Positions 36,823 to 50,039 of a stretch of 64,000 bases of DNA are shown in pieces. Positions within the stretch are counted from its first letter, which is position 1. Each line of letters starts with the position of its first letter. Below the pieces are notes generated by a model. The model was not told the origin of the DNA. It did not search any database and saw only the letters and a program-made list of their open reading frames with translations. Origin of the DNA: Lobosporangium transversale (lineage: Eukaryota). The position numbers and the translations under genes are program-made. The DNA lies in the NCBI RefSeq assembly GCF_002105155.1, contig NW_019028993.1:744001-808000 (forward strand). Direction: 5' to 3'.

Positions 36823-38645
36823 TGCAAAAGTCAAGGTAGTGTTCTAGGGGGATCTAAGGGTGCAATAAAGGTATCTTTATTCAGGGGGAACTATGCTACA
36901 GAACTAGATAGAAAAGTAGACCTATTTATACTAGTTAATGTCCTGTTGCAAGGAATGCTCTAGAAATATGGGCGAAATACTATGTTGCACAAAATTATTA
37001 TAGTGATTTCGCTTGCATCCTTCCCGTCATGAAGAAACCTATTATCTTGTTTTTCTTGAAGCCTCAAAGACGGCAAGCGCCTCTTTAGCGTTTGCGAGCG
37101 AAGATTTTGTTTCCCAAGTAGCTTCATCTAATGGATAGCCTTTCCAAAGAACGAGCCACTTAGGAGTTTTGCCAAACATTTTGAAGTCAATGATTTTGTC
37201 GACTTCATACTCCTCTTCTCCATCTACAAGCTCGGGGGCAGGGCGTGGTGGTGAGCGGTCGCCGAATTCACGAGGTGACTCAATATAGGGGCGAAGCAGA
37301 TCGGCATTAAAGACTGGATGTTGATGCATGTCAGGCGGTAGTTCCAGCTTGTAGGCATTTTCATTGACCTTCGAAATGATCTTGTAAGGGCCTATGTACT
37401 CAGGTTCCAGTTTCTGCGACGGCCTATTTTTATGTCCCGCGACAGAGATGTTTTCCGAGCTTAAGAGCACCATGTCACCCACAGCAAACGTAGCAGGCCT
37501 GCGAGTTTTATCCGCTTGGGCCTTTTGCCTATTCTGCGCTTCGATGATGGCATCTTGAGCTAGCGCCAAATTCATCGACTGGGTTCGAACAAAATCACTG
37601 ACAGCCGGAACATTGGTATCAGGTGGCTTTAAAAGAGATCCAGGGACTAGTGGATGGTGACCATAGTTCAGAAAGAATGGGGAGAAGCCTGTCGTAGGGT
37701 TGACAGAGTTTTGTATGCGAACTCCATCATAGGCAGTAAAAGATCCCAGTCGTTTTGCTTGTACGATATGTAAGAGCGGAGCATTTCTTCTAATGTTCTG
37801 TTGGCGCGCTCTGTTTGTCCGTCTGATTGTGGATGGAAGGCAGTAGACATGTTAAGTTTAGTGCCCATGAGCTACATCAACGTTGTCCAGAACTTGCCGG
37901 TGAAACGTGAATCTCTGTCTGACACAATTGTCCGAGGCATGCCGTGCAGTCTAAAAACATTGTCGAAAAAGAGTCGTGCAACATCAGAGGCAGTGTCGGT
38001 AGTTCGGCTAGCGCAGAAATGAACTTGCTTGGACAGTTTGTCCACAAAGACCGTGATCGCGTCAAAACCTCTGGCTGTCTTCGGAAGCTTGACAATGAAG
38101 TCCATTGTTACAGTATCCCTCGCCATGCGTGGCCAAAAATATGTTCGTCGCATGCTACTGTACGTTTTATCGAATCCCAAGTGGCCTGATATAGGAGCGT
38201 CGTGAGCGTCATGCAAGAGTTGTGAACGGAGTCCGTCGTCCTTGGGTATACAGAGGCGAGGGCCTTGTCCAGCGTTGATCCAGAGTAGACCATCCACCAC
38301 GAAGTAACGATCCGAGGTGGAGGCATCCTTATACTGATGCACGAGGGGACCTAGAATTGGATCGTGTAGGTAGCAACTGGCTAGTTGTTTTCGAATGCCA
38401 GGGTCTAGATTGATATCCAAGGAGTTCAAAGTAGTAGGTGTAGCCTCCAAGTCCTTGAGGTCCGGTCTTCGTGAAAGAGCATCAGGGACGACGTTATCTT
38501 TACCAGGTTTATACTTGAATACGAAATCATACTCTTGAAGCAACTCCATCCATCTTGCTTGTCTGCGAGTCAAGTTCGGCTGGCTAGGAAAATGTTGTAG
38601 AGTGGCATGGTCGGTATAAACGACAAAGTGAGAACCGTCAAGGTA
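36823..38645 (-). mobile_element. Gy4: decayed chromovirus 3' half (RNaseH-integrase-chromodomain, PPT, 195-bp 3' LTR at 36823-37017)
   Basis: Homologous to the pol at 53351-57103; premature stop at 37872; internal integrase deletion; PPT GACGGGAAGGA. Confidence 0.9.
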
Positions 38646-40261
38646 CAGTGGCTTCCAATATTGTCCAAGTGTTTCATTCTTCCAAAGGAAGACTATAAGT
38701 GTTCAACAGTGAGCAGCGCTTGTGCCCTTGGATCCTAGCTGGGAGCAACCTGGAAGACATACATTATTTGCTCAAAACCTATTAGCGCTCCTGCTTGTTT
38801 CTGATAGCTTTTCACTACTTTGAAATTTTCCTCTCATTTGGACAATTTTTTAACCATCGTTTTTTTTCACCTATCAAAACCTCGTATTGCCCCTTTCGCC
38901 CTTATGACTGCTAACATCCGCTCAGGCATACTTCTTATCAGATTGCGGCAGACCTCCTTCGGTGTCTCCTCCTCCCATATCTGGCTCACTCTTTCCCAGA
39001 GTTCCAGCATGCCTTCTGGAATGGTCCCATGTTCGCGAATTTTTTTTTTTTAAATGATCCCACAAATGCTCAATAGGGTTTAGGTCTGGTGAATTGGCAG
39101 GCCATGTCAGTATTCTACCTGACGCTCTTGTCAATCCAATAGAGGCAAGGTAGGTTGTGACTCTCTTAGCCGTATGCTTAGAATCATTGTCTTGTTGGAA
39201 GATAAATTGCTCTGGATCAATGTTGTACCAATCCACAGTATTCAATAACTCGTCCTGGAGGATACGAATATACAGCTCGGAGTCCGGCGTGGAGTCGATC
39301 TTGGCCAAGTAGCCTGGCCCATCCCACGTCATGCAGCCCCAAACCATGATCGAACCACCACCATGTTTGACTGTGGGCGAAACTAACTTTGGGTCAATAT
39401 CGGCCGCCTTCACCTTTGGTTCTTTATTTGTTTCCACCCAAACATAGCGCATGCCATCAGAAGATATCCTACAAATTTTGGACTCATCGGACCAAATTAC
39501 TCGCTTCCAATCAGCTTCAGTCCAGTCTTTGTGCTGGAGAGCAAAGTCCAGTCGAGCTTTCTTTTGACGTTTTGTTAACCTAGGCTTCTTGACGGCTTTT
39601 TTAGTTTCCATGCCTATATCTCTCAGCGCCCGACGCACCGTATTAGCTGACACCGGATCTTCGTTCTCATCGTTATAGAGTCTGGTAGCATCGACAGCTG
39701 ATGAGACTACACCACGGTGAAGCAACAATCGAATATAATATGCATTCCGGTAATCGAACTTCCGTGGCCGACCAGCTTTGCTTTTACTCCTGGCAGGCCC
39801 TAATGTCTTGGAGATATTATGGACTGAGGACTTGGATATGCCTACTTCTGTGGCAACCTGACGGATGGACTTGTGCTGCTCGAGTAAATGGAGAGCATCC
39901 TCAACAACGGAAGCTTTGATTGGCTTCATCTTTGGAGTGTTTAGAAAGAGCAACGTAGGCTCCTAGAAGAGTGTAGGTGAAGAGTATCTACTCAAGTGTG
40001 TGGGAGATAATTTGAAAAAAATTCAGCAAAGGTGCGTAAAATAAGTGATGGTTATATAATTGTCCAAATGAGATTAAATACTTTTGTCAATGAAAAACCA
40101 TGGTGAATGAGACTAGAGATATTTTAAACTGAACCAGTCCACGTATCATTGGCATACTTGTTTACTCTGATAAAAATAAAAGTGCAAGCAACCATCGCTA
40201 TTATTCTAATCAAGACGGAAAACATGAGCGTGGAACATTTGGACAAATTTGGAAGCCACTG
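38646..40261 (-). mobile_element. Tc1-B transposon; transposase 39929-38874 with a +1 frameshift in an A12 run
   Basis: TIR CAGTGGCTTCCAA..TTGTCCAA, TA flanks; WSDESK, FQQDND and SPDLNPIE motifs. Confidence 0.92.
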
Positions 40262-41526
40262 TATCTTAAGAAGATGAAAGTTAAACACCGGCTCACCTCC
40301 GCGTATCACCCGCGCACAAATGGCAAAACCGAACGCACTAATGGCATCCTCGGCGCCGCATTAACAAAATACGTCGGTGATAAGATGAAGCACAAGTGGG
40401 ACCTCTTTCTAGATCAGGCACTTTTCGCCTGCCGCACCAGAATACATAGCGTATCTAAGAAGTCACCATTCTACCTAGTCTATGGAATCGAGCCCACGAT
40501 ACCTGGCGACCTCACTCGTCCTTATGTACATATTCGATGGAGCGGTTTTTACAGAGGTTCAAGCCGCGAGAGAGGCCGAGCTTGAAAGATTGAGACTTGA
40601 GAGGCTATCAAACGAGGAGCGGCAACAGGCAGCCGCAAGGCTCATGGAGGAAAGGTATAATGAGAGACATGACATCGACTCCGAAGCTCCGAGGCAAGTG
40701 TACGAGATTGGCCACTGGGTTTTAGTAAAAAACATAGCGAAAAGGAAATTTGAATACCCTTGGTATGGACCATTGCGTGTCGAGACGATTACCCCTTTTG
40801 GCGCTTACAAGCTTATCTGGCCCGATGGAAAAGCGAAAATGGACCTTGTGCATAAAGACCGTCTGAAACCGGTGAATCTACCGGCGGGTAGTCCAGAACC
40901 GACGCGCGCATGGTATAAAACCCGCAACAGTCGCGATGAACTCACCATCCCCATGGAGACCATTCAAGAAGAAGACGAGCGAGGACCTCAGTCGGAGCCA
41001 GAAGTAGGTACAGCAGTGCAACCCATACCCCTCGAAGGTTCATCGCGTACAACGGCCCCATCATCATCAGCAAGGCCCGCAGCTACCGCATCGCCCCCTC
41101 CTGCGCGACCACCACGTTCCCTCTCAAGGCCCAATCCAAAGATTGACGCCGCAGGGGCGGCTTGGATTTCTCGTGGGGAGTCTGTCCTAAATCGAGGCAA
41201 CTTAAGCTCACGTCCTATAACAAGTGACGTCATGGTAGGTAGGACCAGAGGTATACCTATAGTGGTACCCTCAAACCCACCCCGCCCTGCCTGGACGTGA
41301 GCTCAGCCACCCGATCCTCCCCGCTATAATAAATAGTGGACTCTCCGTCCCTGAAGTGTTCCTTACCTTTATCTTGGTACAACACTTCAGGTATGCAACC
41401 TCATTCATCTCAGCACTAGTTACTTGTATAGTATTATATGTATCATAAACTAATAAAGACCTTTATCTTGGTACAACACTTCAGTGTGTTCTATGTATTT
41501 GCGTCTTGCTGCGGTTTTTAAGGGCA
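40262..41526 (+). mobile_element. Gy3: Gypsy 3' remnant (integrase end, PPT, 344-bp 3' LTR at 41183-41526)
   Basis: TSAYHPRTNGKTER integrase motif, frameshifted; C-terminus resembles Gy2; LTR TGTCCTAAA...TTTAAGGGCA. Confidence 0.85.
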
Positions 41527-41982
41527 TCTCAGTATAACCCCCGGTTCTTAAGACAGTGATTTTTTCACACAAATGTCGTAGAGCATCTACTAGTGATCTC
41601 TGGAAACTAGTAGGTAATGATGAAAAATGAAGAATTGGGCAAGAGCCTCGTGGTTTTGGGATACGATAGTGATCCTAAGTAATGCTTTGAATGATTTTGA
41701 GGATGCTGCAAAAGGGCATCGATAATAAGAAGAGAGATGCCGTTTTTGCAGTGAAGGAAAAAGCTACTTAAATACTATTTAAAAATGGTAGTAAATAGGA
41801 TGATAGGAAATAAATAAATTGAAAGGAAATACATATTTAGGTAAATGAATAGGCGTCATTTACGACACCCCTCCATTCGGATTGGCACTACTCCTGGAGT
41901 GCCTGGATAAACGCCGTAGCTCTCTCAGATAAATCTCAGCAGCATTTGCTGGAGGAATGATAGGAGAAGGAGGAGCTACAGC

Positions 41983-42292
41983 CAGTGCTCCTATTCGATT
42001 CGAACGGATCGAGTTCGAATAGCTTCGAATAAGCCATATCCTGGTTCGATTCGAATGGTTCGAATGGTTCGAATGGTTCGAATAGGACCACTGGTTACGC
42101 GTAGTGAAAGTATGATCCTTGTACTTTACACCCAATCAAAAAAAAAAAAAAAAAAAAAAAAAAGTTTAAAATTATCATTTACTATTGTTCCAATAGTTCG
42201 AATAAATCGAAGGCTCGAATCATTCGAACCATTCGAATAGCATTCGAATTTTGTTATCTAATCGAATTCGAATGGTTCGAATAGGAGCACTG
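41983..42292. mobile_element. hAT-type MITE (long form) in the Gy2 pol 3' end
   Basis: TIR CAGTGCTCCTATTCGA, 8-bp TSD GCTACAGC, many TTCGAA motifs. Confidence 0.92.
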
Positions 42293-45200
42293 GCTACAGC
42301 ATCACGATCAGCGATGAACTGCTCTTGAGCTACACGTTGTCGTGCAGCATCTTGAATTTGTGCCGTTACTGGATCAAGTTCAATGGGTGATCCGTCCATG
42401 GAATTATCCATAGAAAATTCATCAGAAGCGCTTTTTGGTCTATACCAAGGCGCCTTAGGCAACTCATTATTGACTAGAACAGCCTTCTTCAATCTATCTT
42501 GATGGACTAAGTCAGCTTTTATCGTACCGTCAGGCCATGCAAGCTGAAAGGTATGTAGAGGCGTTGCTCGAACAATACGTAGGGGACCATAAAAACTTTG
42601 ATCAAATTTCTTCTTAGCGAAGTGCTTCACAAGGACGGCGTCACCTGGAAGAAATTTATTTTCGTCGATTTCATTCTGCTTGTCATAGGTAGAAGCCATA
42701 AGACCTGCTGCTTTCTGTTGTAGACCATGTGCTTTGCGACGTATTTCATCAATCTGATCAAACTGTTGTTGTCTGTAAGCTGAGTAATCATCTTCCGTTA
42801 TGAAGTCGAATAAATGAGGGTGAGAAGTATCTCCAGGGATAACTGGATCTAGACCATAAACCAGTTTAAAAGGTGACACTTTAGTGATAGAGTGTATACG
42901 AACTCGACATGCGAATAAGGCTTGTAAAATGTATCTGTCCCAAGCTGTACGATGATTTCCGACAAACTTGTTAATCATTGTGCCTAATAAGCCGTTAAAT
43001 CGTTCGCACTTTCCGCTGGCTCGGGGATGGTATGCAGATGTTAGTTGATGGTTCGTACCCATCCGATTCATATATCGCTGTAAGGTCGCTGCCGTGAAAT
43101 TTGATCCACGGTCTGTGACAATTTCAGATGGACATCCAAACTGCATAAAAATTTCCTCATAAATAAAGTCAGCAACTGCCGATGCAGTCGCTTCATGCAC
43201 AGCACGGGCTAAGGGCCAGTTGGTAGCATAATCAATTGCGGTGATAATCCAACGATTGCCATTCTTGGTTTTCGGTAGGGCTCCTATGAAGTCCATTCCC
43301 CAGCGCTGAAAGGGCAAGGTAGGCTCTAGAGGATGTAGAGGTGCAACAGTGGCATCTTGACGGGCTAACAGCTGACATTCAGGACAAGCTGAGACCATTG
43401 TTATAATATCAGCACGAAGGGTTGGCCACCATACACGAGTTGAAACCAGATCGAATAAGCCGTTTCGGCCAAGATGACCAAAGCCAGCATGATACATATA
43501 TAGAGTATCAGCTCGATTGACGAAAGGAACAAATGGGACTGGGCCGTGTTCTGTTATACGACACAAAGTATCGTGATCGACTTGGAAATGAATTGCTTCA
43601 TCTCTTACTAGTTTAGCAGATTCATCATCTTCAGGTAAGGATCCATCCTTGAAATAGGCATAGATGTATAAAGGCCAGTCAACATTATCAGCGGCAAAGT
43701 CTTTTATAGATGAAGTAGTTGCAAGAGAGGCAACTGTTGGTGTAGATAAACGAGACAAAGCATCTGCGGCTGAGTTATCGACACCTCGACGATATTGAAT
43801 ATCAAGATTGTAGGGCGCCAAAAATTCAATCCATCTGGCCATACGACCGCTCAGATGAGGTTGATTAAATAAAAAGCGTAGGCTAGCGTGATCAGTGAAG
43901 ACGGTTACTACTGATCCTAAGAGGTAAGAGCGCCATGCTCCACATGCTCGGACTATGGCCAATAGTTCCTTTTCATGGACTGGAAAATTTTTCTCAGAAT
44001 TAGAGAGCTTGTGTGACACAAAAGCAACCGGGTGAAGACGGTTATCGATCATTTGTGAAAGAACTGCTCCTGTAGCAATGTCAGAGGCATCAGTTTCCAC
44101 AAAAAATGGCTTAGAAAAGTCTCCGGGGTAAAGAACTGGTGTTGAGGTAAGCAATTGAATCAACTTGTCCATGGCTGCTTGATGGCTAGGAGTCCATTGT
44201 GGTAAAGGTCTCTTTTTGGCATTGTTTTGTCCTTCTTGCTTTAATAAATCAGTCAAGGGGCTTGCAATCTTGGCGAAGTTGCGTATAAATCGCCTGTAGT
44301 AATTTGTGAAGCCTAAGAATGAGCGTAATTCTTGAACATTGGATGGAGTGGGCCAATCTTTAAGGACTGCAACCTTGTCTGGATCGACTTCAATACCTCG
44401 AGAGGATATGACATGACCCAAGAATTTGACTTCAGATACACCAAAGGTACACTTGCTGGGCTTTGCGTGAAGGGAAGCCGATTTCAAAGCTTCTAGAACC
44501 AGCTTGAGATGTTGAACATGCTCTTTCATAGAAGAAGAGAAAATAAGGATGTCGTCTAAAAAGACAACAACGAACTTGTCCAAGAATTCCTTTAAGACAT
44601 CATTGGTTAAAGTCTGGCATGTAGCAGGTCCTCCTGTGAGACCAAAAGGCATGACTACGTATTCGAAATGGCCATATCTTGTATTGAAAGCAGTTTTTGG
44701 AATGTCTGCAGGGTGAATACGCACTTGATTAAAAGCACTTTCTAAGTCTAGCTTGGAGAAAACAGTAGCACCAGTAAATCGATCGAAAAATTCTTCGATC
44801 AAGGGAAGTGGGTACCTATTCTTGATTGTGATTGAGTTCAAAGCTCTATAATCAATACACAGCCGGAGGGAACCATCGCTCTTGGTCACGAATAGAACAG
44901 GGGATGCCCACGGGGAAATGGAAGGTCTGATAAAGCCTTTCTTAAGTAAATCATCAAGTTGTTGCTTTAAAACTAACAACTCTTTTGGGGACATCTTGTA
45001 GGCTCGCTTATAGATCGGGCGTGCGTCTACTGTATCAATGTGATGATCTTGAGGTCTCTGTGGTGGTAGAGTCGACAATGGAGTGAAGACAGAATTTTCA
45101 TATTCGTATAAAAGCTTCTGTAGTGTAGGATCAATATTGTTGTCTTTAATAACTTCCGCTAACGAAAGAGCAGAAATTTTCGGAGTCGATTGTTCATCTT

Positions 45201-46818
45201 GAAGAAAAACCAAACCCAGGTCTTGTTGATTTGACACAGCACGCTGGATGGCTCGATGAGTACACAACGAATCCATTTGAGGTTCCGAAGAAAGAACCTT
45301 TGGGGATGAGTCTTTGGAAGAAGCCTTGTATGATGCTCCATTCACAGTCCAAGTCAAAGTTCCTTGAACATAATCAGTATTTGGATTATACTTCTTTAAC
45401 CAAACCAGGCCAAGGTAAATGTCTTGACTTAGGATATCAGCCACGCAAAATTCCTCGTCATGAGTAAAGTTGCCGATAGTAAATACGAGAGTGACTAAGC
45501 TTGTCAACTTTACGTTACTAAGATTGGCTGTAGTGGCGATTGTTGGCCGATTGAGTTTTGTTTCTTTTTTTATGAGCGAAGGATCATATGCGCGGATCCT
45601 GTTAAGCGCTGTTGTAGAGATCGCGTTGCAATTGCATCCGCCGTCGATAAGGGCAATCAGCTCAGTTGAGCCGACGTTCGTTTTGATGAAGATCTGTTCA
45701 GGCAACATTTTGATGTGATCTTCTAGTGGTGCTGATTTATCTGTCATTGTAGTAGGCTCAACGGTATGAGCTTGTAATTGATTAACATGGGCAGATTTGT
45801 CAGGCTTATTATCAGGCTTTGTAGGGCAAGCGTACCCTTTGTGATCTGTCTTGCCACAGATATAGCATGACCGGGGACCATTGCCACCGTTTTTGTAGCA
45901 TTGTACCTCAGAATGGCCGTGCCTGCCACAAGTAGGACAAGGTGGACGTCTTGTTCTGAGGGAATCTATGTCCATAGTAGATTCCGCAACATGGTCATGG
46001 TCTTGATGACGGTCTTGATGACGGTCTTGGTGTTGTTGTGAATTATTTTGATGAGAATTGTTTTGATGAGAGTTATTTCGATGATAAGTGGTATGTGAGG
46101 TTGAATGTCTGACAAAGTCATTATTTTTGTAAGATGCTTGATGTGGAGGAGGAGTATGAGGTTTGTCATTGGATCTTGATGCCTTGTCTAAGAGTCTCTT
46201 TGCGTCCCAGTTATGAGATTCTGTGCGACAAACATCTAGGACTTCATTCCAGGTCGTGGCGTTCTCTTTCTGAAGCTTGCGCTGGAGCCATAAATCTGCG
46301 ACTCGACGGAAGTTCCATACTTTTTCTCCTTCGGGAATTTTATCACGAAGTGGATAGTATGCTGCCTCGAACTCACGGACGAATTCCATAACATCTGAGT
46401 TCGGTTTCATGGATAAATTGTCGTACTTGTAACGTAGCTCGAACTCATCATCCGCCTTGGCAAATTGTTCCTTAAAATCTTGAGCGAATTTTTTCCAAGT
46501 GAGGATATTCTTAGTCTCAAGATCGTCAATGTGTCTAAGACTCCAATCACGTGCGATCTTTTCCATATGTAGAGCAACACGAACTGTAAAGAAGTTATCA
46601 TTGACGTTGGAAATTTTGTACAAAGCGTCCATAGCGCGTAACCAGGATGAAACATCCGTCTTGCTATCGAATCGTTCAATTCCTGCAAGATTAAAATGCT
46701 GATTGGTTGTAGTTTCCATATTTACATCACCATCGGTGTCAAGAAAGGAATTGGAGGATGTGGTCGTGGTAGAGGAGCTTGCGGTGCTTTGAACGTTGAT
46801 ATTGGATGGGGGTTTCAT
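42220..46818 (-). CDS. Gy2 single-ORF Gag-Pol (2 CCHC knuckles, PR, RT, RNaseH, IN); original stop at 41860 before the MITE insertion
   Basis: CPTC..H..C and CYIC..H..C; LIDGG; LCIDYRALN; FLDD; ETDAS; HHCC and DDE integrase. Confidence 0.95.
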   Translation of the reverse strand: MKPPSNINVQSTASSSTTTTSSNSFLDTDGDVNMETTTNQHFNLAGIERFDSKTDVSSWLRAMDALYKISNVNDNFFTVRVALHMEKIARDWSLRHIDDLETKNILTWKKFAQDFKEQFAKADDEFELRYKYDNLSMKPNSDVMEFVREFEAAYYPLRDKIPEGEKVWNFRRVADLWLQRKLQKENATTWNEVLDVCRTESHNWDAKRLLDKASRSNDKPHTPPPHQASYKNNDFVRHSTSHTTYHRNNSHQNNSHQNNSQQHQDRHQDRHQDHDHVAESTMDIDSLRTRRPPCPTCGRHGHSEVQCYKNGGNGPRSCYICGKTDHKGYACPTKPDNKPDKSAHVNQLQAHTVEPTTMTDKSAPLEDHIKMLPEQIFIKTNVGSTELIALIDGGCNCNAISTTALNRIRAYDPSLIKKETKLNRPTIATTANLSNVKLTSLVTLVFTIGNFTHDEEFCVADILSQDIYLGLVWLKKYNPNTDYVQGTLTWTVNGASYKASSKDSSPKVLSSEPQMDSLCTHRAIQRAVSNQQDLGLVFLQDEQSTPKISALSLAEVIKDNNIDPTLQKLLYEYENSVFTPLSTLPPQRPQDHHIDTVDARPIYKRAYKMSPKELLVLKQQLDDLLKKGFIRPSISPWASPVLFVTKSDGSLRLCIDYRALNSITIKNRYPLPLIEEFFDRFTGATVFSKLDLESAFNQVRIHPADIPKTAFNTRYGHFEYVVMPFGLTGGPATCQTLTNDVLKEFLDKFVVVFLDDILIFSSSMKEHVQHLKLVLEALKSASLHAKPSKCTFGVSEVKFLGHVISSRGIEVDPDKVAVLKDWPTPSNVQELRSFLGFTNYYRRFIRNFAKIASPLTDLLKQEGQNNAKKRPLPQWTPSHQAAMDKLIQLLTSTPVLYPGDFSKPFFVETDASDIATGAVLSQMIDNRLHPVAFVSHKLSNSEKNFPVHEKELLAIVRACGAWRSYLLGSVVTVFTDHASLRFLFNQPHLSGRMARWIEFLAPYNLDIQYRRGVDNSAADALSRLSTPTVASLATTSSIKDFAADNVDWPLYIYAYFKDGSLPEDDESAKLVRDEAIHFQVDHDTLCRITEHGPVPFVPFVNRADTLYMYHAGFGHLGRNGLFDLVSTRVWWPTLRADIITMVSACPECQLLARQDATVAPLHPLEPTLPFQRWGMDFIGALPKTKNGNRWIITAIDYATNWPLARAVHEATASAVADFIYEEIFMQFGCPSEIVTDRGSNFTAATLQRYMNRMGTNHQLTSAYHPRASGKCERFNGLLGTMINKFVGNHRTAWDRYILQALFACRVRIHSITKVSPFKLVYGLDPVIPGDTSHPHLFDFITEDDYSAYRQQQFDQIDEIRRKAHGLQQKAAGLMASTYDKQNEIDENKFLPGDAVLVKHFAKKKFDQSFYGPLRIVRATPLHTFQLAWPDGTIKADLVHQDRLKKAVLVNNELPKAPWYRPKSASDEFSMDNSMDGSPIELDPVTAQIQDAARQRVAQEQFIADRDAVASAPIRTIRIRLDNKIRMLFEWFE

Positions 46819-46946
46819 TGTTGATAAATAAAAGGTCTTTGTTTGAAAAAAAGGGCAAATAAGGGGATGAATAAATAAAAATGTGTGTAAACAAGTAAAA
46901 AGGTAACAAATAAGGAAAGAGATAAATGAAACGGAAAAAGAAAGCT

Positions 46947-46986
<40 letters not shown>

Positions 46987-47564
46987 ATATGCGCGAAAAA
47001 TAAAAGTGTGTGGTGAAGGTAAAGAATTTGGTTGAGGAAAAGCAAAAAGTTTGTAATATGATCACAACAAAAGGATGAATATGTACAATCAAAAAGTGTC
47101 AAGAAGAATAATAATGGAGTAGTAACTAGGTCGCGTTAGAGGTTAAAAGAACCTTTGCTACCATTTGTCGTAGAGCATCTACTAGTGATCTCTGGAAACT
47201 AGTAGGTAATGATGAAAAATGAAGAATTGGGCAAGAGCCTCGTGGTTTTGGGATACGATAGTGATCCTAAGTAATGCTTTGAATGATTTTGAGGATGCTG
47301 CAAAAGGGCATCGATAATAAGAAGAGAGATCTTTAATAACTGCTAATTTTCTGAGAATTCATAATGAGAATAATGAAGATAAACTCACCTGCAAAAGGGC
47401 ATCGATAATAAGAAGAGAGATGCCGTTTTTGCAGTGAAGGAAAAAGCTACTTAAATACTATTTAAAAATGGTAGAAAATAGGATGATAGGAAATAAATAA
47501 ATTAAAAGGAAATACATATTTAGGTAAATGAATAGGCGTCATTTACGACAACATAAGCAATGTT

Positions 47565-47637
47565 GCTTTCCTAGCTCAGTTGGCAGAGCGTCAGTCTCAT
47601 AATCTGAAGGTCGTGAGTTCGAACCTCACGGAGAGCA
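47565..47637 (+). tRNA. tRNA-Met(CAT), elongator type
   Basis: Acceptor stem GCTTTCC/GGAGAGC, D-arm GCTC/GAGC, anticodon loop CTCATAA, T-loop TTCGAA, T5 terminator at 47641. Confidence 0.95.
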
Positions 47638-47647
47638 ATCTTTTTAT

Positions 47648-48051
47648 GGATCAATCTATTTGGCAGCCCATGCCAAATATAGTAATTTTTGCCTCTATTT
47701 GGCAGCCTAATTCTGGGGGCTGCCACTTAACTTCGCACTCTTGGGTGGCAGCTGGGCTGCCAAATACATTACTTTTTTTTTTTTTTTTTTTTTTGATAAA
47801 CAGGGTCATAACATCAGTGGTAAAACAAGCAGCGTTCTGTGGATACATTGCCTTGCACAGCTAATGCCGCCGGAGGTACTAAGGACAGCGGCGATGACAT
47901 CTTCACAAAACAGCCTTCAATGTACACGGTTAGGGAATGGTTTATTGAAGACGTCTAGGTAGTAGGTGAGACGCGTTTGCTCCGAGCGAAAACCTCTCAT
48001 AGGCATTGATCTCCAAATGGCACCTCCAAAACTGTATGAGCGACCTACTTG

Positions 48052-48088
<37 letters not shown>

Positions 48089-48378
48089 TTAGTTTTCTAA
48101 ATGAGACAAGACAATGTCACTACACATGACTATGACGTAGAAGACGGGAGCTGTATTAATTTAAAGTATGAGCGTTATATACATATACGGTTCCTAGGAA
48201 TGAAAAAAAAAAAAAAAAAAAAAATAGTTAGAGGCCAAATAACGCTGGGTAGGCTGCCAAGTAAATAATGAATGTTATTTGGCAACTGGGCTGCCAAAGA
48301 GAGTCTTGAAAGTTGATTATATTTGACAATGGGCTGCCAAATAATATTTAGCAACTAGGCTGCCAAATAGATTAATCC
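47648..48378. mobile_element. Non-autonomous TIR element (GG...CC ends) containing a Tc1-C TIR fragment
   Basis: TIR GGAT(C/T)AATCTATTTGGCAGCC at both ends; repeated GGCAGCC/GGCTGCC motifs; no clear TSD. Confidence 0.65.
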
Positions 48379-48381
48379 TTG

Positions 48382-48576
48382 TGCAAAAGTCAAGGTAGTG
48401 TTCTAGGGGGATCTAAGGGTGCAATAAAGGTATCTTTATTCAGGGGGAACTATGCTACAGAACTAGATAGAAAAGTAGACCTATTTATACTAGTTAATGT
48501 CCTGTTGCAAGGAATGCTCTAGAAATATGGGCGAAATACTATGTTGCACAAAATTATTATAGTGATTTCGCTTGCA
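48382..48576 (-). mobile_element. Solo LTR of the Gy4 family
   Basis: Appears identical to 36823-37017; no matching TSD. Confidence 0.9.
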
Positions 48577-48813: not shown

Positions 48814-49479
48814 CAGTGCTCCTATTCGATTCGAACGGTTCGATTCGAATGGTTCGAATGACGCGAATTATTCGAGTAGTGCGAGTGTCGAATGACGCGA
48901 ATTATTCGAGTAGTTCGAGTGTCGAATGACGCGAATTATTCGAGTAGTTCGAGTGTCGAATGACGCGAATTATTCGAGTAGTTCGAGTGTCGAATGACGC
49001 GAATTATTCGAGTAGTTCGAATGTCGAATGACGCGAATTATTCGAGTAGTTCGAGTGTCGAATGGTTTGTCACGAACAGCAAGCAATGTCTAGCTCATGA
49101 ATTGATGAATGACTTTTGTCTGATTCGAATCTGAAAAAGATCACGTGTGCTTGATTAATTTGTTCCGCTCATTTCCTTCACTCATTCCTCCATGCATAGT
49201 TTGCCTGTCAAGCCAAGTCGCGTCTCTTAGTTTTCTAGCTCCGTGAATAGCTCCAAGGATTCTAGAAGAGCTATAAACCAATAACCAAGACTTATAGTGC
49301 CAAGGAACCTTGAAATAAGATTGCACCAGATATCTTCCTCGGATCCTGTGTATTAAGTTAACTCAACACTTGGAGTTCCGCATATGGTAAAAGTCCTTAG
49401 GAAATATTTGAGTAAGCTTTATTTAGAATTCTTGAAGCGCGTCTCCGCTTCAGTCAAACAAGTATAAATATGATAGATT
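48814..49479. mobile_element. hAT-family element left end with subterminal tandem array
   Basis: Starts CAGTGCTCCTATTCGATTCGAACGG like 41983; right TIR not found. Confidence 0.7.
48854..49057. repeat. 34-bp tandem repeat x6 (TCGAATGACGCGAATTATTCGAGTAGTTCGAGTG)
   Basis: Contiguous units with no spacers. Confidence 0.95.
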
Positions 49480-50039
49480 TGTAACATAGTAAACCTCAGT
49501 CTGCAATAAAACTATTCTTGAATCTCCTAAGTTCATTCTTGTTCCTAAATCACTTACCTTCTCTTGCAATCGTCCTGTCAGTCCTTGACAGCGTCTCTAT
49601 TTATATGTTATTCATGGGCTATGCTTATCAGTGAGTCATAGGGCTGTACCTATCGATGACTCATGGGCTATGCTTATCGATGGGCTATGTTTATCAATGA
49701 GTCAAAGGCTATGCTTATCAATGAGTCATAGGCTATGCTTATCATTGAGTCATAGGCTATGCTTTCACATGCTACACTATCATGCAAAACTGATTCAATA
49801 ATTCATTCCCATGTGCATTTCTTTTTTTCATTCCTAGAAACCGTATATGCATACACCACTCATACTTTGGTTTAATAAAGCTCCCGTCTTCTTCTACGTC
49901 ATAGTGATGCGTTGTGACATTAGCTTGTCTCATTTGAATAGCTAATGACTTTTTTGTTCATGCAGGTCATTGAATCAGTTTCACATGTGCCCATTCGGTG
50001 GCCAAAGATCTTTATTCTTTTGTGAGGCATAACCTTACA

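Follow-up and report, generated by a model that had tools for sequence, protein, structure and literature searches.

A conserved hairpin closing on a putative splice donor in the long terminal repeats of fungal Ty3/Gypsy retrotransposons

The window, i.e., the whole stretch of DNA that was analyzed, comprises 64,000 nt, with positions counted from its first letter. Judged by its sequence, it is fungal DNA; the galactokinase that it encodes shows 83% identity to a Mortierella protein, and the best 26 matches of this enzyme are almost all from Mortierellaceae. From ~34.5 kb onward, the window is occupied by a nest of transposons, among them two adjoining LTR retrotransposons, referred to here as Gy3 and, on the minus strand, Gy2 (Table 1). 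Gy2 combines the RT-RNase H-integrase order with TG..CA LTRs, a primer-binding site, and a polypurine tract. Gy3, whose own gag-pol is absent from the window, is recognized by an integrase remnant (BLASTP E value of 2e-25), a polypurine-tract-like stretch, an LTR, and a primer-binding site seen in contigs. By these sequence features, both are LTR retrotransposons of the non-chromoviral Ty3/Gypsy type; the closest named protein is the “putative transposase” of Entomortierella parvispora (P0006, 51%). The ends of the Gy3 LTR could be placed with the help of public DNA-run contigs, some of which begin at 41183, whereas others run past 41567 into the primer-binding motif TGGTAGC and thus fix its 3' end at 41567.

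Table 1. Features of the Gy3 and Gy2 elements in the window
Feature	Position	Strand	Basis and remarks
Gy3 integrase C-terminal remnant, Ty3/Gypsy, two frames	40133..41300	+	Two segments, 55% and 41% identical to Gy2 integrase
Polypurine-tract-like stretch, Gy3	41173..41182	+	Sequence; between integrase and the TG of the LTR
Gy3 3' LTR, 385 bp, multi-copy family	41183..41567	+	TGTCC..TTTCA ends
TATA-like box, Gy3	41325..41335	+	TATAAT at -40, TAAATA at -35 from repeat 1; AATAAA at 41328-33 within
5' arm of Gy3 hairpin, putative U3	41350..41364	+	Folding; arm shuffles reach observed energy in 0/1000
Gy3 repeat 1, 26 nt, putative exon 1 and functional R	41365..41390	+	A after pyrimidine at start, CAG end; holds loop and 3' arm
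3' arm of Gy3 11-bp stem, donor positions -10 to +1	41381..41391	+	Folding
Gy3 intron-shaped unit, 94 nt, GTATGC..CAG, putatively spliced	41391..41484	+	Repeat scan; homologues 91, 94, 101 nt
Gy3 CTAAT (branch-like), AATAAA, G directly before repeat 2	41450..41458	+	Sequence; hexamer at -7/-8 and G at -1 in 4/4 elements
Gy3 repeat 2, exact copy of repeat 1	41459..41484	+	Putative 3' splice site, poly(A) region, strand-transfer acceptor
Gy3 putative U5, GT-rich start	41485..41567	+	Sequence; ends at primer-binding junction
Gy2 3' LTR, 294 bp, without intron and one repeat	41574..41867	-	Otherwise 2 differences from 5' LTR
Gy2 gag-pol, single open frame, 1574 aa, no chromodomain	42220..46944	-	ORF and domain families
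Gy2 5' LTR carrying the same module as the Gy3 LTR	47166..47550	-	Repeat scan, folding
Gy2 repeat 2	47330-47298	-	Repeat scan
Gy2 ATTAAA	47337-47332	-	Sequence
Gy2 donor GTGAGT	47388	-	Folding, repeat scan
Gy2 repeat 1	47421-47389	-	Folding, repeat scan
Gy2 arm	47434-47422	-	Folding, repeat scan

The surroundings of these elements are a young and deeply nested cluster: Gy3 and Gy2, together with a Tc1-like transposon, a tRNA gene, and other fragments, all lie inside a chromoviral element with identical 195-bp LTRs (36823-48576). TTCGAA-rich word repeats with 9-nt and 34-nt periods lie within short inverted-repeat elements at 41983-42290 and 48814-49064, the former in the 3' region of Gy2 and the latter beside a solo LTR. 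The 5' LTR of Gy2 ends 13 nt before a tRNA-Met gene (region 47551-47638), and the Gy3 LTR ends 6 nt from the other end of Gy2 (41568-41573), so that both elements appear to have inserted at one site before the tRNA. In one contig, another Gy2 LTR lies ~13 nt before a tRNA-like start; a different contig joins the ends of a Gy2 and a Gy3 LTR across 4 letters. Ty3 targets tRNA genes, and this arrangement suggests similar targeting in the Gy2/Gy3 clade.

In the Gy3 LTR, CTGAAGTGTT (41351-60) and AACACTTCAG (41381-90) are exact reverse complements of each other. The first-pass annotation described this stem, together with an inner TACC/GGTA pair and an analogous stem in Gy2, and both stems were recovered, the former with one additional pair (C41350-G41391). 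The resulting perfect 11-bp stem (41350-60/41381-91) includes the first G of GTATGC, can be extended by three further pairs across the donor, and has a 3-nt pyrimidine bulge to one side; the inner helix (41364-67/41376-79) is present in the minimum free energy (MFE) structure. The Gy3 hairpin has an MFE of -16.7 kcal/mol (z score of -6.5), and its Gy2 counterpart, at 47380-47450 on the minus strand, one of -20 kcal/mol (z score of -4.2); none of 200 shuffled sequences was as stable in either case. Perfect 11-bp stems occur 16 times in the window, counted as 11-mer starts on both strands, and the Gy3 stem is the only one that ends on AG/GT. Likewise, the most stable local folds among the 48 CAG/GTR sites of the window are those at the Gy3 and Gy2 LTR donors (-22.6 and -20.0, against a median of -10.2). 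The hairpin is real, it exceeds what chance provides, and it is conserved.

Homologous LTRs were sought with an alignment of 50 integrases, which was used to fetch 78 metagenome loci and 12 loci from prokaryote bins. The two closest ones, L001 (62%) and L002 (50%), carry the same module as Gy3 and Gy2. In a quick tree of 109 rows, in which 80 of the 90 loci were kept, these four elements fall into a single 16-row clade (SH-aLRT of 93, and 99 for the part with Gy2, L001, and L002), the other 12 rows of which are proteins without DNA. The module was not seen in the remaining 88 loci; 49 of these have at least 500 nt past the integrase match, and 16 have the whole LTR bracketed by a rough rule. 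The 88 loci include the 12 from prokaryote genomes; two scans of viral contigs returned no relatives. Tandem matches in L004, L010, L018, L025, and L088 proved to be whole-LTR duplications or simple repeats and were rejected. Among relatives outside the module clade, L004 (4673-4985), L006, L014, L020, L029, and L076 show tandem LTRs or LTR-sharing tandem elements, with the polypurine tract, LTR, and primer-binding site in one stretch. The loci L079 to L090 encode fungal-type Ty3/Gypsy integrases in contigs that are filed under bacterial metagenome-assembled genomes, most likely as a result of eukaryotic contamination of the bins.

Within the window, a scan for exact repeats that end in AG and have GT after the first copy returned exactly two sites, the Gy3 LTR and the 5' LTR of Gy2; the module is absent from the three other LTRs of the window. 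All four elements, which are related, so that counts over them are not independent, share a common layout that consists of a TATA-like box, 35 to 36 nt, repeat 1 ending on CAG/GT, an intron-shaped unit with a poly(A)-type hexamer, a G, and repeat 2. Outside these shared marks, sequence conservation is low, with 16 invariant columns of 77. The repeats are 26 (Gy3), 33 (Gy2), 34, and 33 nt long, start with an A after a pyrimidine and end with CAG, while the units total 94, 91, 94, and 101 nt. With the donors CAG/GTATGC, GTGAGT, GTAAAC, and GTACTT and a pyrimidine-rich repeat that ends in CAG, each unit has the outline of a GT..AG intron; in L001, whose contig ends inside repeat 2, the acceptor copy was read from the 5' LTR. 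A shortage of internal AG in the repeats was not significant (joint value of 0.09). The hexamers AATAAA, ATTAAA, AATACA, and ATTAAA lie at -7 or -8 of repeat 2, and the CAG/GT motif is found 51 to 61 nt upstream of them in all four elements, which by motifs alone is the foamy virus-type order of donor before poly(A) signal. In each case, repeat 2 is directly preceded by AAG, and its last G contrasts with the pyrimidine before repeat 1, given that G makes up 12 to 15% of these introns.

Candidate branch points are less uniform. A CTRAY motif is present in Gy3 and in L001, where TACTAAT lies 13 nt upstream of the AAG; Gy2 and L002 offer YTNAY at best, and their motifs are weak. In the first-pass annotation, the overlap of CTAAT with AATAAA was proposed to make the spliceosome and the cleavage factors compete for one site. 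This overlap does exist in Gy3 (41450-54 and 41452-57), but it is found in only one of the four elements, with CTRAY 4 nt before the hexamer in another and absent in two, so a conserved competition device of this kind was rejected. Also rejected was the bridging of the U3 AATAAA at 41328 by the hairpin, in the manner of HTLV, as the other three LTRs have no such hexamer. From the hexamers to the end of repeat 2, the distance is 27 to 36 nt, more than the 15 to 23 nt given for the distance from poly(A) signal to cleavage (PMC12789967), so that cleavage at the CAG itself is doubtful. The 3' end is probably cleaved inside repeat 2, which would then be shorter than repeat 1, and hiding repeat 1 would be necessary in that case.

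In all four elements, identity between the two repeats stops sharply at a pyrimidine/A step, 35 to 36 nt after the TATA-like box. Such boxes are found at -35 or -36 of repeat 1 in every element and additionally at -40 in Gy3 and at -43 in Gy2, the set of TATA-like motifs having been chosen after inspection of the sequences. The TATA-to-start spacing in Cryptococcus is 35 to 40 bp (PMC9604717, cited there as unpublished), a value that may not be that of Mortierellaceae; a spacing of 25 to 30 nt from the TATAAT at 41325 would instead place the Gy3 start at the beginning of the arm. Given the position of the repeat boundary 35 to 36 nt from the box, the RNA would start at the first A of repeat 1, with the 5' arm in U3. 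The repeat boundary equals the cap site if each round copies repeat 2 anew from a capped first exon. A start at repeat 2 without splicing was also considered and rejected, since inspection of the introns by eye revealed no TATA-like box at -35 of that repeat. A start downstream of the 5' arm had been listed in the first-pass annotation as an outcome that would speak against the hairpin; that reasoning runs the wrong way round, because such a start would make the hairpin specific to the 3' LTR.

Most of the pairs in the predicted structures need bases upstream of the repeat start: 11 of 14 in Gy3, 15 of 18 in Gy2, 21 of 22 in L002, and 9 of 12 in L001. Consequently, the stem would form only in 3'-LTR RNA, where the putative U3 is transcribed. 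The predicted cost of opening the donor (positions -3 to +6) is 7.0 to 10.2 kcal/mol in Gy3 when U3 is included, compared to 1.2 to 4.1 kcal/mol when the RNA begins at the repeat; the respective values are 10.3 to 11.7 and 4.0 to 5.9 kcal/mol in Gy2 and 5.9 to 6.4 and 3.4 to 4.0 kcal/mol in L002. The extra cost that comes with U3 thus amounts to 4.8 to 6.5, 5.2 to 6.3, and 2.0 to 3.0 kcal/mol. In L001, the order is reversed (0.8 to 1.7 kcal/mol with U3 and 2.2 to 2.8 kcal/mol without it), so that the donor of this element is predicted not to be masked. The idea, already raised from the Gy3 sequence, that the 5' arm hides repeat 1 but not repeat 2 was borne out in the predictions: opening the whole of repeat 1 would take 17.1 (Gy3), 15.6 (Gy2), 17.6 (L002), and 9.2 (L001) kcal/mol, and opening the whole of repeat 2 only 3.6, 4.5, and 1.8 kcal/mol in the first three, the L001 value not being computable. 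The arm pairs with repeat 1 when at least 40 nt of U3 are supplied; with only 27 nt of U3, it sits partly (8.2 versus 3.7 pairs in Gy3) or equally (9.1 versus 8.9 pairs in L002) on repeat 2. Bulges, their geometry, and loops differ among the four elements. In sum, repeat 1 is predicted to be hidden in all four elements and the donor in three.

When the 27 nt before repeat 1 were shuffled 1,000 times to gauge the specificity of the arm, the observed energy was reached 0 times in Gy3, 12 times in Gy2, 0 times in L002, and 55 times in L001, the last result not being significant; other 27-mers of the same U3 fold as well in 0 of 127, 0 of 75, 0 of 251, and 1 of 66 cases, respectively. Compensatory changes, which had been named as a way to check the hairpin in homologous LTRs, do exist. 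Covariation was scored in a sequence-only alignment of Gy2, L001, and L002, with which Gy3 does not align in register. Of the 12 consensus pairs, 6 change on both sides, a result matched in 1 of 500 shuffles; slid controls gave 0 to 2 such pairs. By the reading of the alignment, five pair changes between Gy2 and L001 are compensatory, each of these two elements keeping 11 of the 12 pairs, whereas L002 breaks 7 of the 12 in the consensus register and forms its own longer stem instead. As it draws on three sequences and on a structure that comes from their own alignment, the covariation is suggestive rather than conclusive. Contigs of 4 public runs covering 40900-41900, which show presence rather than absence, contain no variant inside the Gy3-family hairpin, so that there is no covariation to score within that family.

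LTR elements face two constraints: the poly(A) signal has to be passed over in the first LTR yet used in the second, and introns that are spliced out are normally lost upon reverse transcription. The hairpin, which is conserved and probably functional, is part of an intron-shaped LTR module, and on balance we favor its being a position switch that folds only in 3'-LTR RNA. Transcription would start at the first A of repeat 1, giving an RNA 5' end that lacks the arm and has an open donor. In the 5' LTR, U1 would bind this donor, and the unit, including the poly(A) hexamer, would be spliced out up to the CAG of repeat 2, leaving cap-repeat-U5. In the 3' LTR, U3 would be transcribed, the arm would pair with repeat 1 and the edge of the donor, U1 would be kept off, and the hexamer would direct cleavage in or at the end of repeat 2. 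Minus-strand strong-stop DNA would then consist of U5 and a single repeat, to which a cap-templated C would probably be added, and would meet a closed repeat 1 and an open repeat 2 preceded by G. A jump to repeat 2 would rebuild U3-repeat 1-intron-repeat 2-U5, with repeat 2 re-copied from repeat 1 in every round; a jump to repeat 1 would instead yield two intronless LTRs without a poly(A) signal. The presence of exact repeats in four diverged LTRs implies continual re-copying, which this cycle would supply, and the G before repeat 2 in all four elements fits read-through of the cap by reverse transcriptase (RT). Layout, conservation, folds, and compensatory changes are the basis of this scheme, and from them we infer the start site, splicing, the cleavage site, the exclusion of U1, the jump to repeat 2, and the cap-copied G. 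A more specific proposal, which we put forward tentatively, is that the spliced 5' poly(A) signal is rebuilt in each cycle because the U3-templated hairpin and the cap-copied G force the first transfer onto the duplicate of exon 1.

The switch could be narrower in scope than this. The hairpin might serve only to hide repeat 1 from strong-stop DNA, with the choice between splicing and cleavage in the 3' LTR set by other means, such as kinetics or upstream elements, and its closing on the donor would then follow simply from the fact that repeat 1 ends there. L001 fits such a restricted role, as it keeps the stem over repeat 1 (9.2 kcal/mol, with the pairs that are compensatory to those of Gy2) and leaves the donor open, and the stems in general cover mostly exon-side positions. 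However, the predicted fold covers the donor G in three of the four elements and raises the opening cost by 2 to 6.5 kcal/mol, and the two best-folded donors among the 48 in the window are precisely those of the Gy3 and Gy2 LTRs, which makes this account unlikely. It is distinctly unlikely, too, that there is no splicing at all and that the donor binds U1 merely to silence the hexamer of the 5' LTR, with R spanning repeat 1 to repeat 2 and the repeats being a relic kept alike by template switching. Suppression in foamy virus is reported to be independent of splicing (PMC3694450), and the weak branch motifs of Gy2 and L002 point the same way; nevertheless, this account leaves unexplained why the second copy ends exactly at a CAG that matches the exon end, why identity stops at the putative start, why the length of the unit keeps to the narrow range of 91 to 101 nt, and why a G precedes repeat 2.

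A start at or before 41350 would place the hairpin in R at both ends of the RNA, as in a 5'-terminal TAR-like element that regulates splicing or the amount of packaging. The arm does begin at a distance of 25 to 30 nt from TATAAT at 41325, a 3-nt pyrimidine bulge is present in the Gy3 stem, and mixed starts are conceivable here, the choice of start site being what exposes or hides the donor in HIV-1 (PMC11998490). The chances of this arrangement nonetheless appear slim: repeat identity stops at +1 in all four elements, L001 and L002 have their boxes at -35, the geometry of the bulge varies among the four, and a search of Rfam with 41150-41900 gave no TAR match up to an E value of 5 and nothing near threshold. 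In addition, strong-stop DNA that carries the arm would presumably match the arm and repeat 1 better and would delete the intron in each round. The AAG before repeat 2 could itself be the 3' splice site, which would explain the G without cap copying and agrees with the presence of AAG in all four elements and of TACTAAT 13 nt upstream in L001; but the branch-like A of Gy3 is just 5 nt from that AG, and a spliced RNA with two tandem repeats should, in our view, add a repeat in each round, which none of the four elements shows. We consider this option very improbable. That the hairpin is a functionless product of chance or of a mechanical process, e.g., snap-back synthesis, is hardly credible in light of the z score of -6.5 and its recurrence with compensatory changes in diverged sequence, even with a weak stem in L001 and four elements only.

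The 3' LTR of Gy2 lacks exactly the intron and one repeat and otherwise differs from the 5' LTR at 2 of 294 sites. It could be seen as proof of splicing, an argument that we rejected: the unit is missing from just one of the two LTRs, the base at -1 in this LTR is still C rather than G, and the 5-nt flanks differ (ACAAA versus ACATA). Since the two LTRs and the flanks differ, and given the C at -1, a wrong jump fits less well, and a deletion between the repeats, recombination of two copies, or misassembly is a likelier origin. Two arm changes (41740 and 41742) are listed for a diverged low-depth contig with a Gy2-like LTR in the same intronless register. Contigs of four of the eight public runs, which show presence only, contained neither a joint of 41390 to 41485 nor a backward joint indicative of tandem units in the region 40900-41900; a transcript that starts at repeat 1 and is spliced would read the same as repeat 2-U5.

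Several other observations come from the same contigs. In run X7, guessed to be RNA, the U5 contig has a depth of 525.6 compared to 50.7 for the U3-repeat 1-intron contig, with none over 41439-41457, figures that were not counted as evidence because parts of a gene cannot be ranked by the depth of contigs and the kind of run is a guess; in DNA runs, the same two contigs are close to 1:1 (242.3 versus 237.5 and 247.4 versus 250). X7 also contains a variant of the Gy3 LTR that lacks 11 nt at 41267 and whose loose end at 41438 in the intron matches the end of a small transposon near 49774. In three runs, contigs join repeat 2-U5 to unrelated upstream sequence within 41458-41506 (loose ends at 41458 and 41466), and that sequence shares a 17-nt word between runs. 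Such joints could stem from an LTR that is truncated and located elsewhere, or from a related LTR whose intron is a different one.

If the position-switch model holds, a 130-nt module solves the choice of poly(A) site and the loss of introns at once: an intron would survive reverse transcription despite being spliced, and the poly(A) problem of identical LTRs would have gained a fourth or further solution. Donor masking that depends on U3 would extend from foamy viruses to retrotransposons, and the repeat boundary and the G at -1 would be marks, in DNA, of the cap site and the strand-transfer acceptor. The module is small, and the predictions are sharp (a start at 41365, cleavage within 41459-84, and a jump to repeat 2); it may also inform the design of vector LTRs. 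In a literature search that covered mostly open-access papers, no description was found of an intron or a masked donor inside the LTR of a retrotransposon.

The elements described here resemble other non-chromoviral Ty3/Gypsy elements of Mucoromycota in the RT-RNase H-integrase order of gag-pol, the absence of a chromodomain, and the TGGTAGC primer-binding motif, but differ from the sampled sister clades, whose LTRs do not contain the module. By analogy, the module would work most like the U3-dependent donor masking of foamy viruses. In prototype foamy virus, the major splice donor is in the R region of the LTR, use of the 5' poly(A) site is suppressed by U1, and in the 3' LTR, refolding of the donor by bases -13 to -1 blocks U1 (Schrom et al. 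2013, PMC3694450). As in the virus (PMC3694450), the donor motif of the fungal module precedes the poly(A) signal within the LTR. The bases just upstream of +1 that alter the fold of the donor solely in 3'-LTR RNA are -13 to -1 in the virus (PMC3694450); approximately -27 to -1 are predicted to do so in three of the four fungal elements, with the reverse predicted for L001. In contrast to the virus, the fungal module has its predicted acceptor inside the LTR and a second copy of exon 1 at the end of the intron, splicing would remove its poly(A) signal, and the masking helix is a simple stem of 11 to 15 bp. The foamy virus R is 193 nt long, with no such repeat mentioned in the parts consulted (PMC3694450); its host is not a fungus, and the element described here is a Ty3/Gypsy retrotransposon.

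In the LTRs of the RSV, MMTV, and HTLV-1 type, the poly(A) signal is in U3, and the R of RSV and MMTV is short (PMC3694450, PMC12789967). The fungal module is similar in that, after the predicted splice, the 5' end would contain no poly(A) signal and the functional R would be a word of 26 to 34 nt that follows the hexamer. It differs in having the promoter ~95 to 100 nt upstream of that copy of R and in that the signal would be removed by splicing rather than excluded by the start site. HIV-1 TAR, which is contained entirely within R at the RNA 5' end and recruits Tat, shares with the Gy3 hairpin a stable bulged stem-loop near the start of R, and R hairpins are located in the region of minus-strand transfer (PMC12789967). 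Nevertheless, the term “TAR-like” used in the first-pass annotation was not supported, as the stem described here depends on upstream, putatively U3 bases for 11 of its 14 pairs, ends on a donor, and has no TAR match in Rfam; moreover, the single frame of Gy2, the only member of the clade that is intact in the window, showed no Tat-like domain, its families being only gag, RT, RNase H, and integrase. Finally, read-through of the cap by RT, giving a G at -1, has been reported for HIV-1, AMV, and MLV (PMC11998490), and the G before the putative acceptor copy in all four fungal elements is comparable; in these elements, by analogy, it would mark which of two identical repeats serves as the acceptor.
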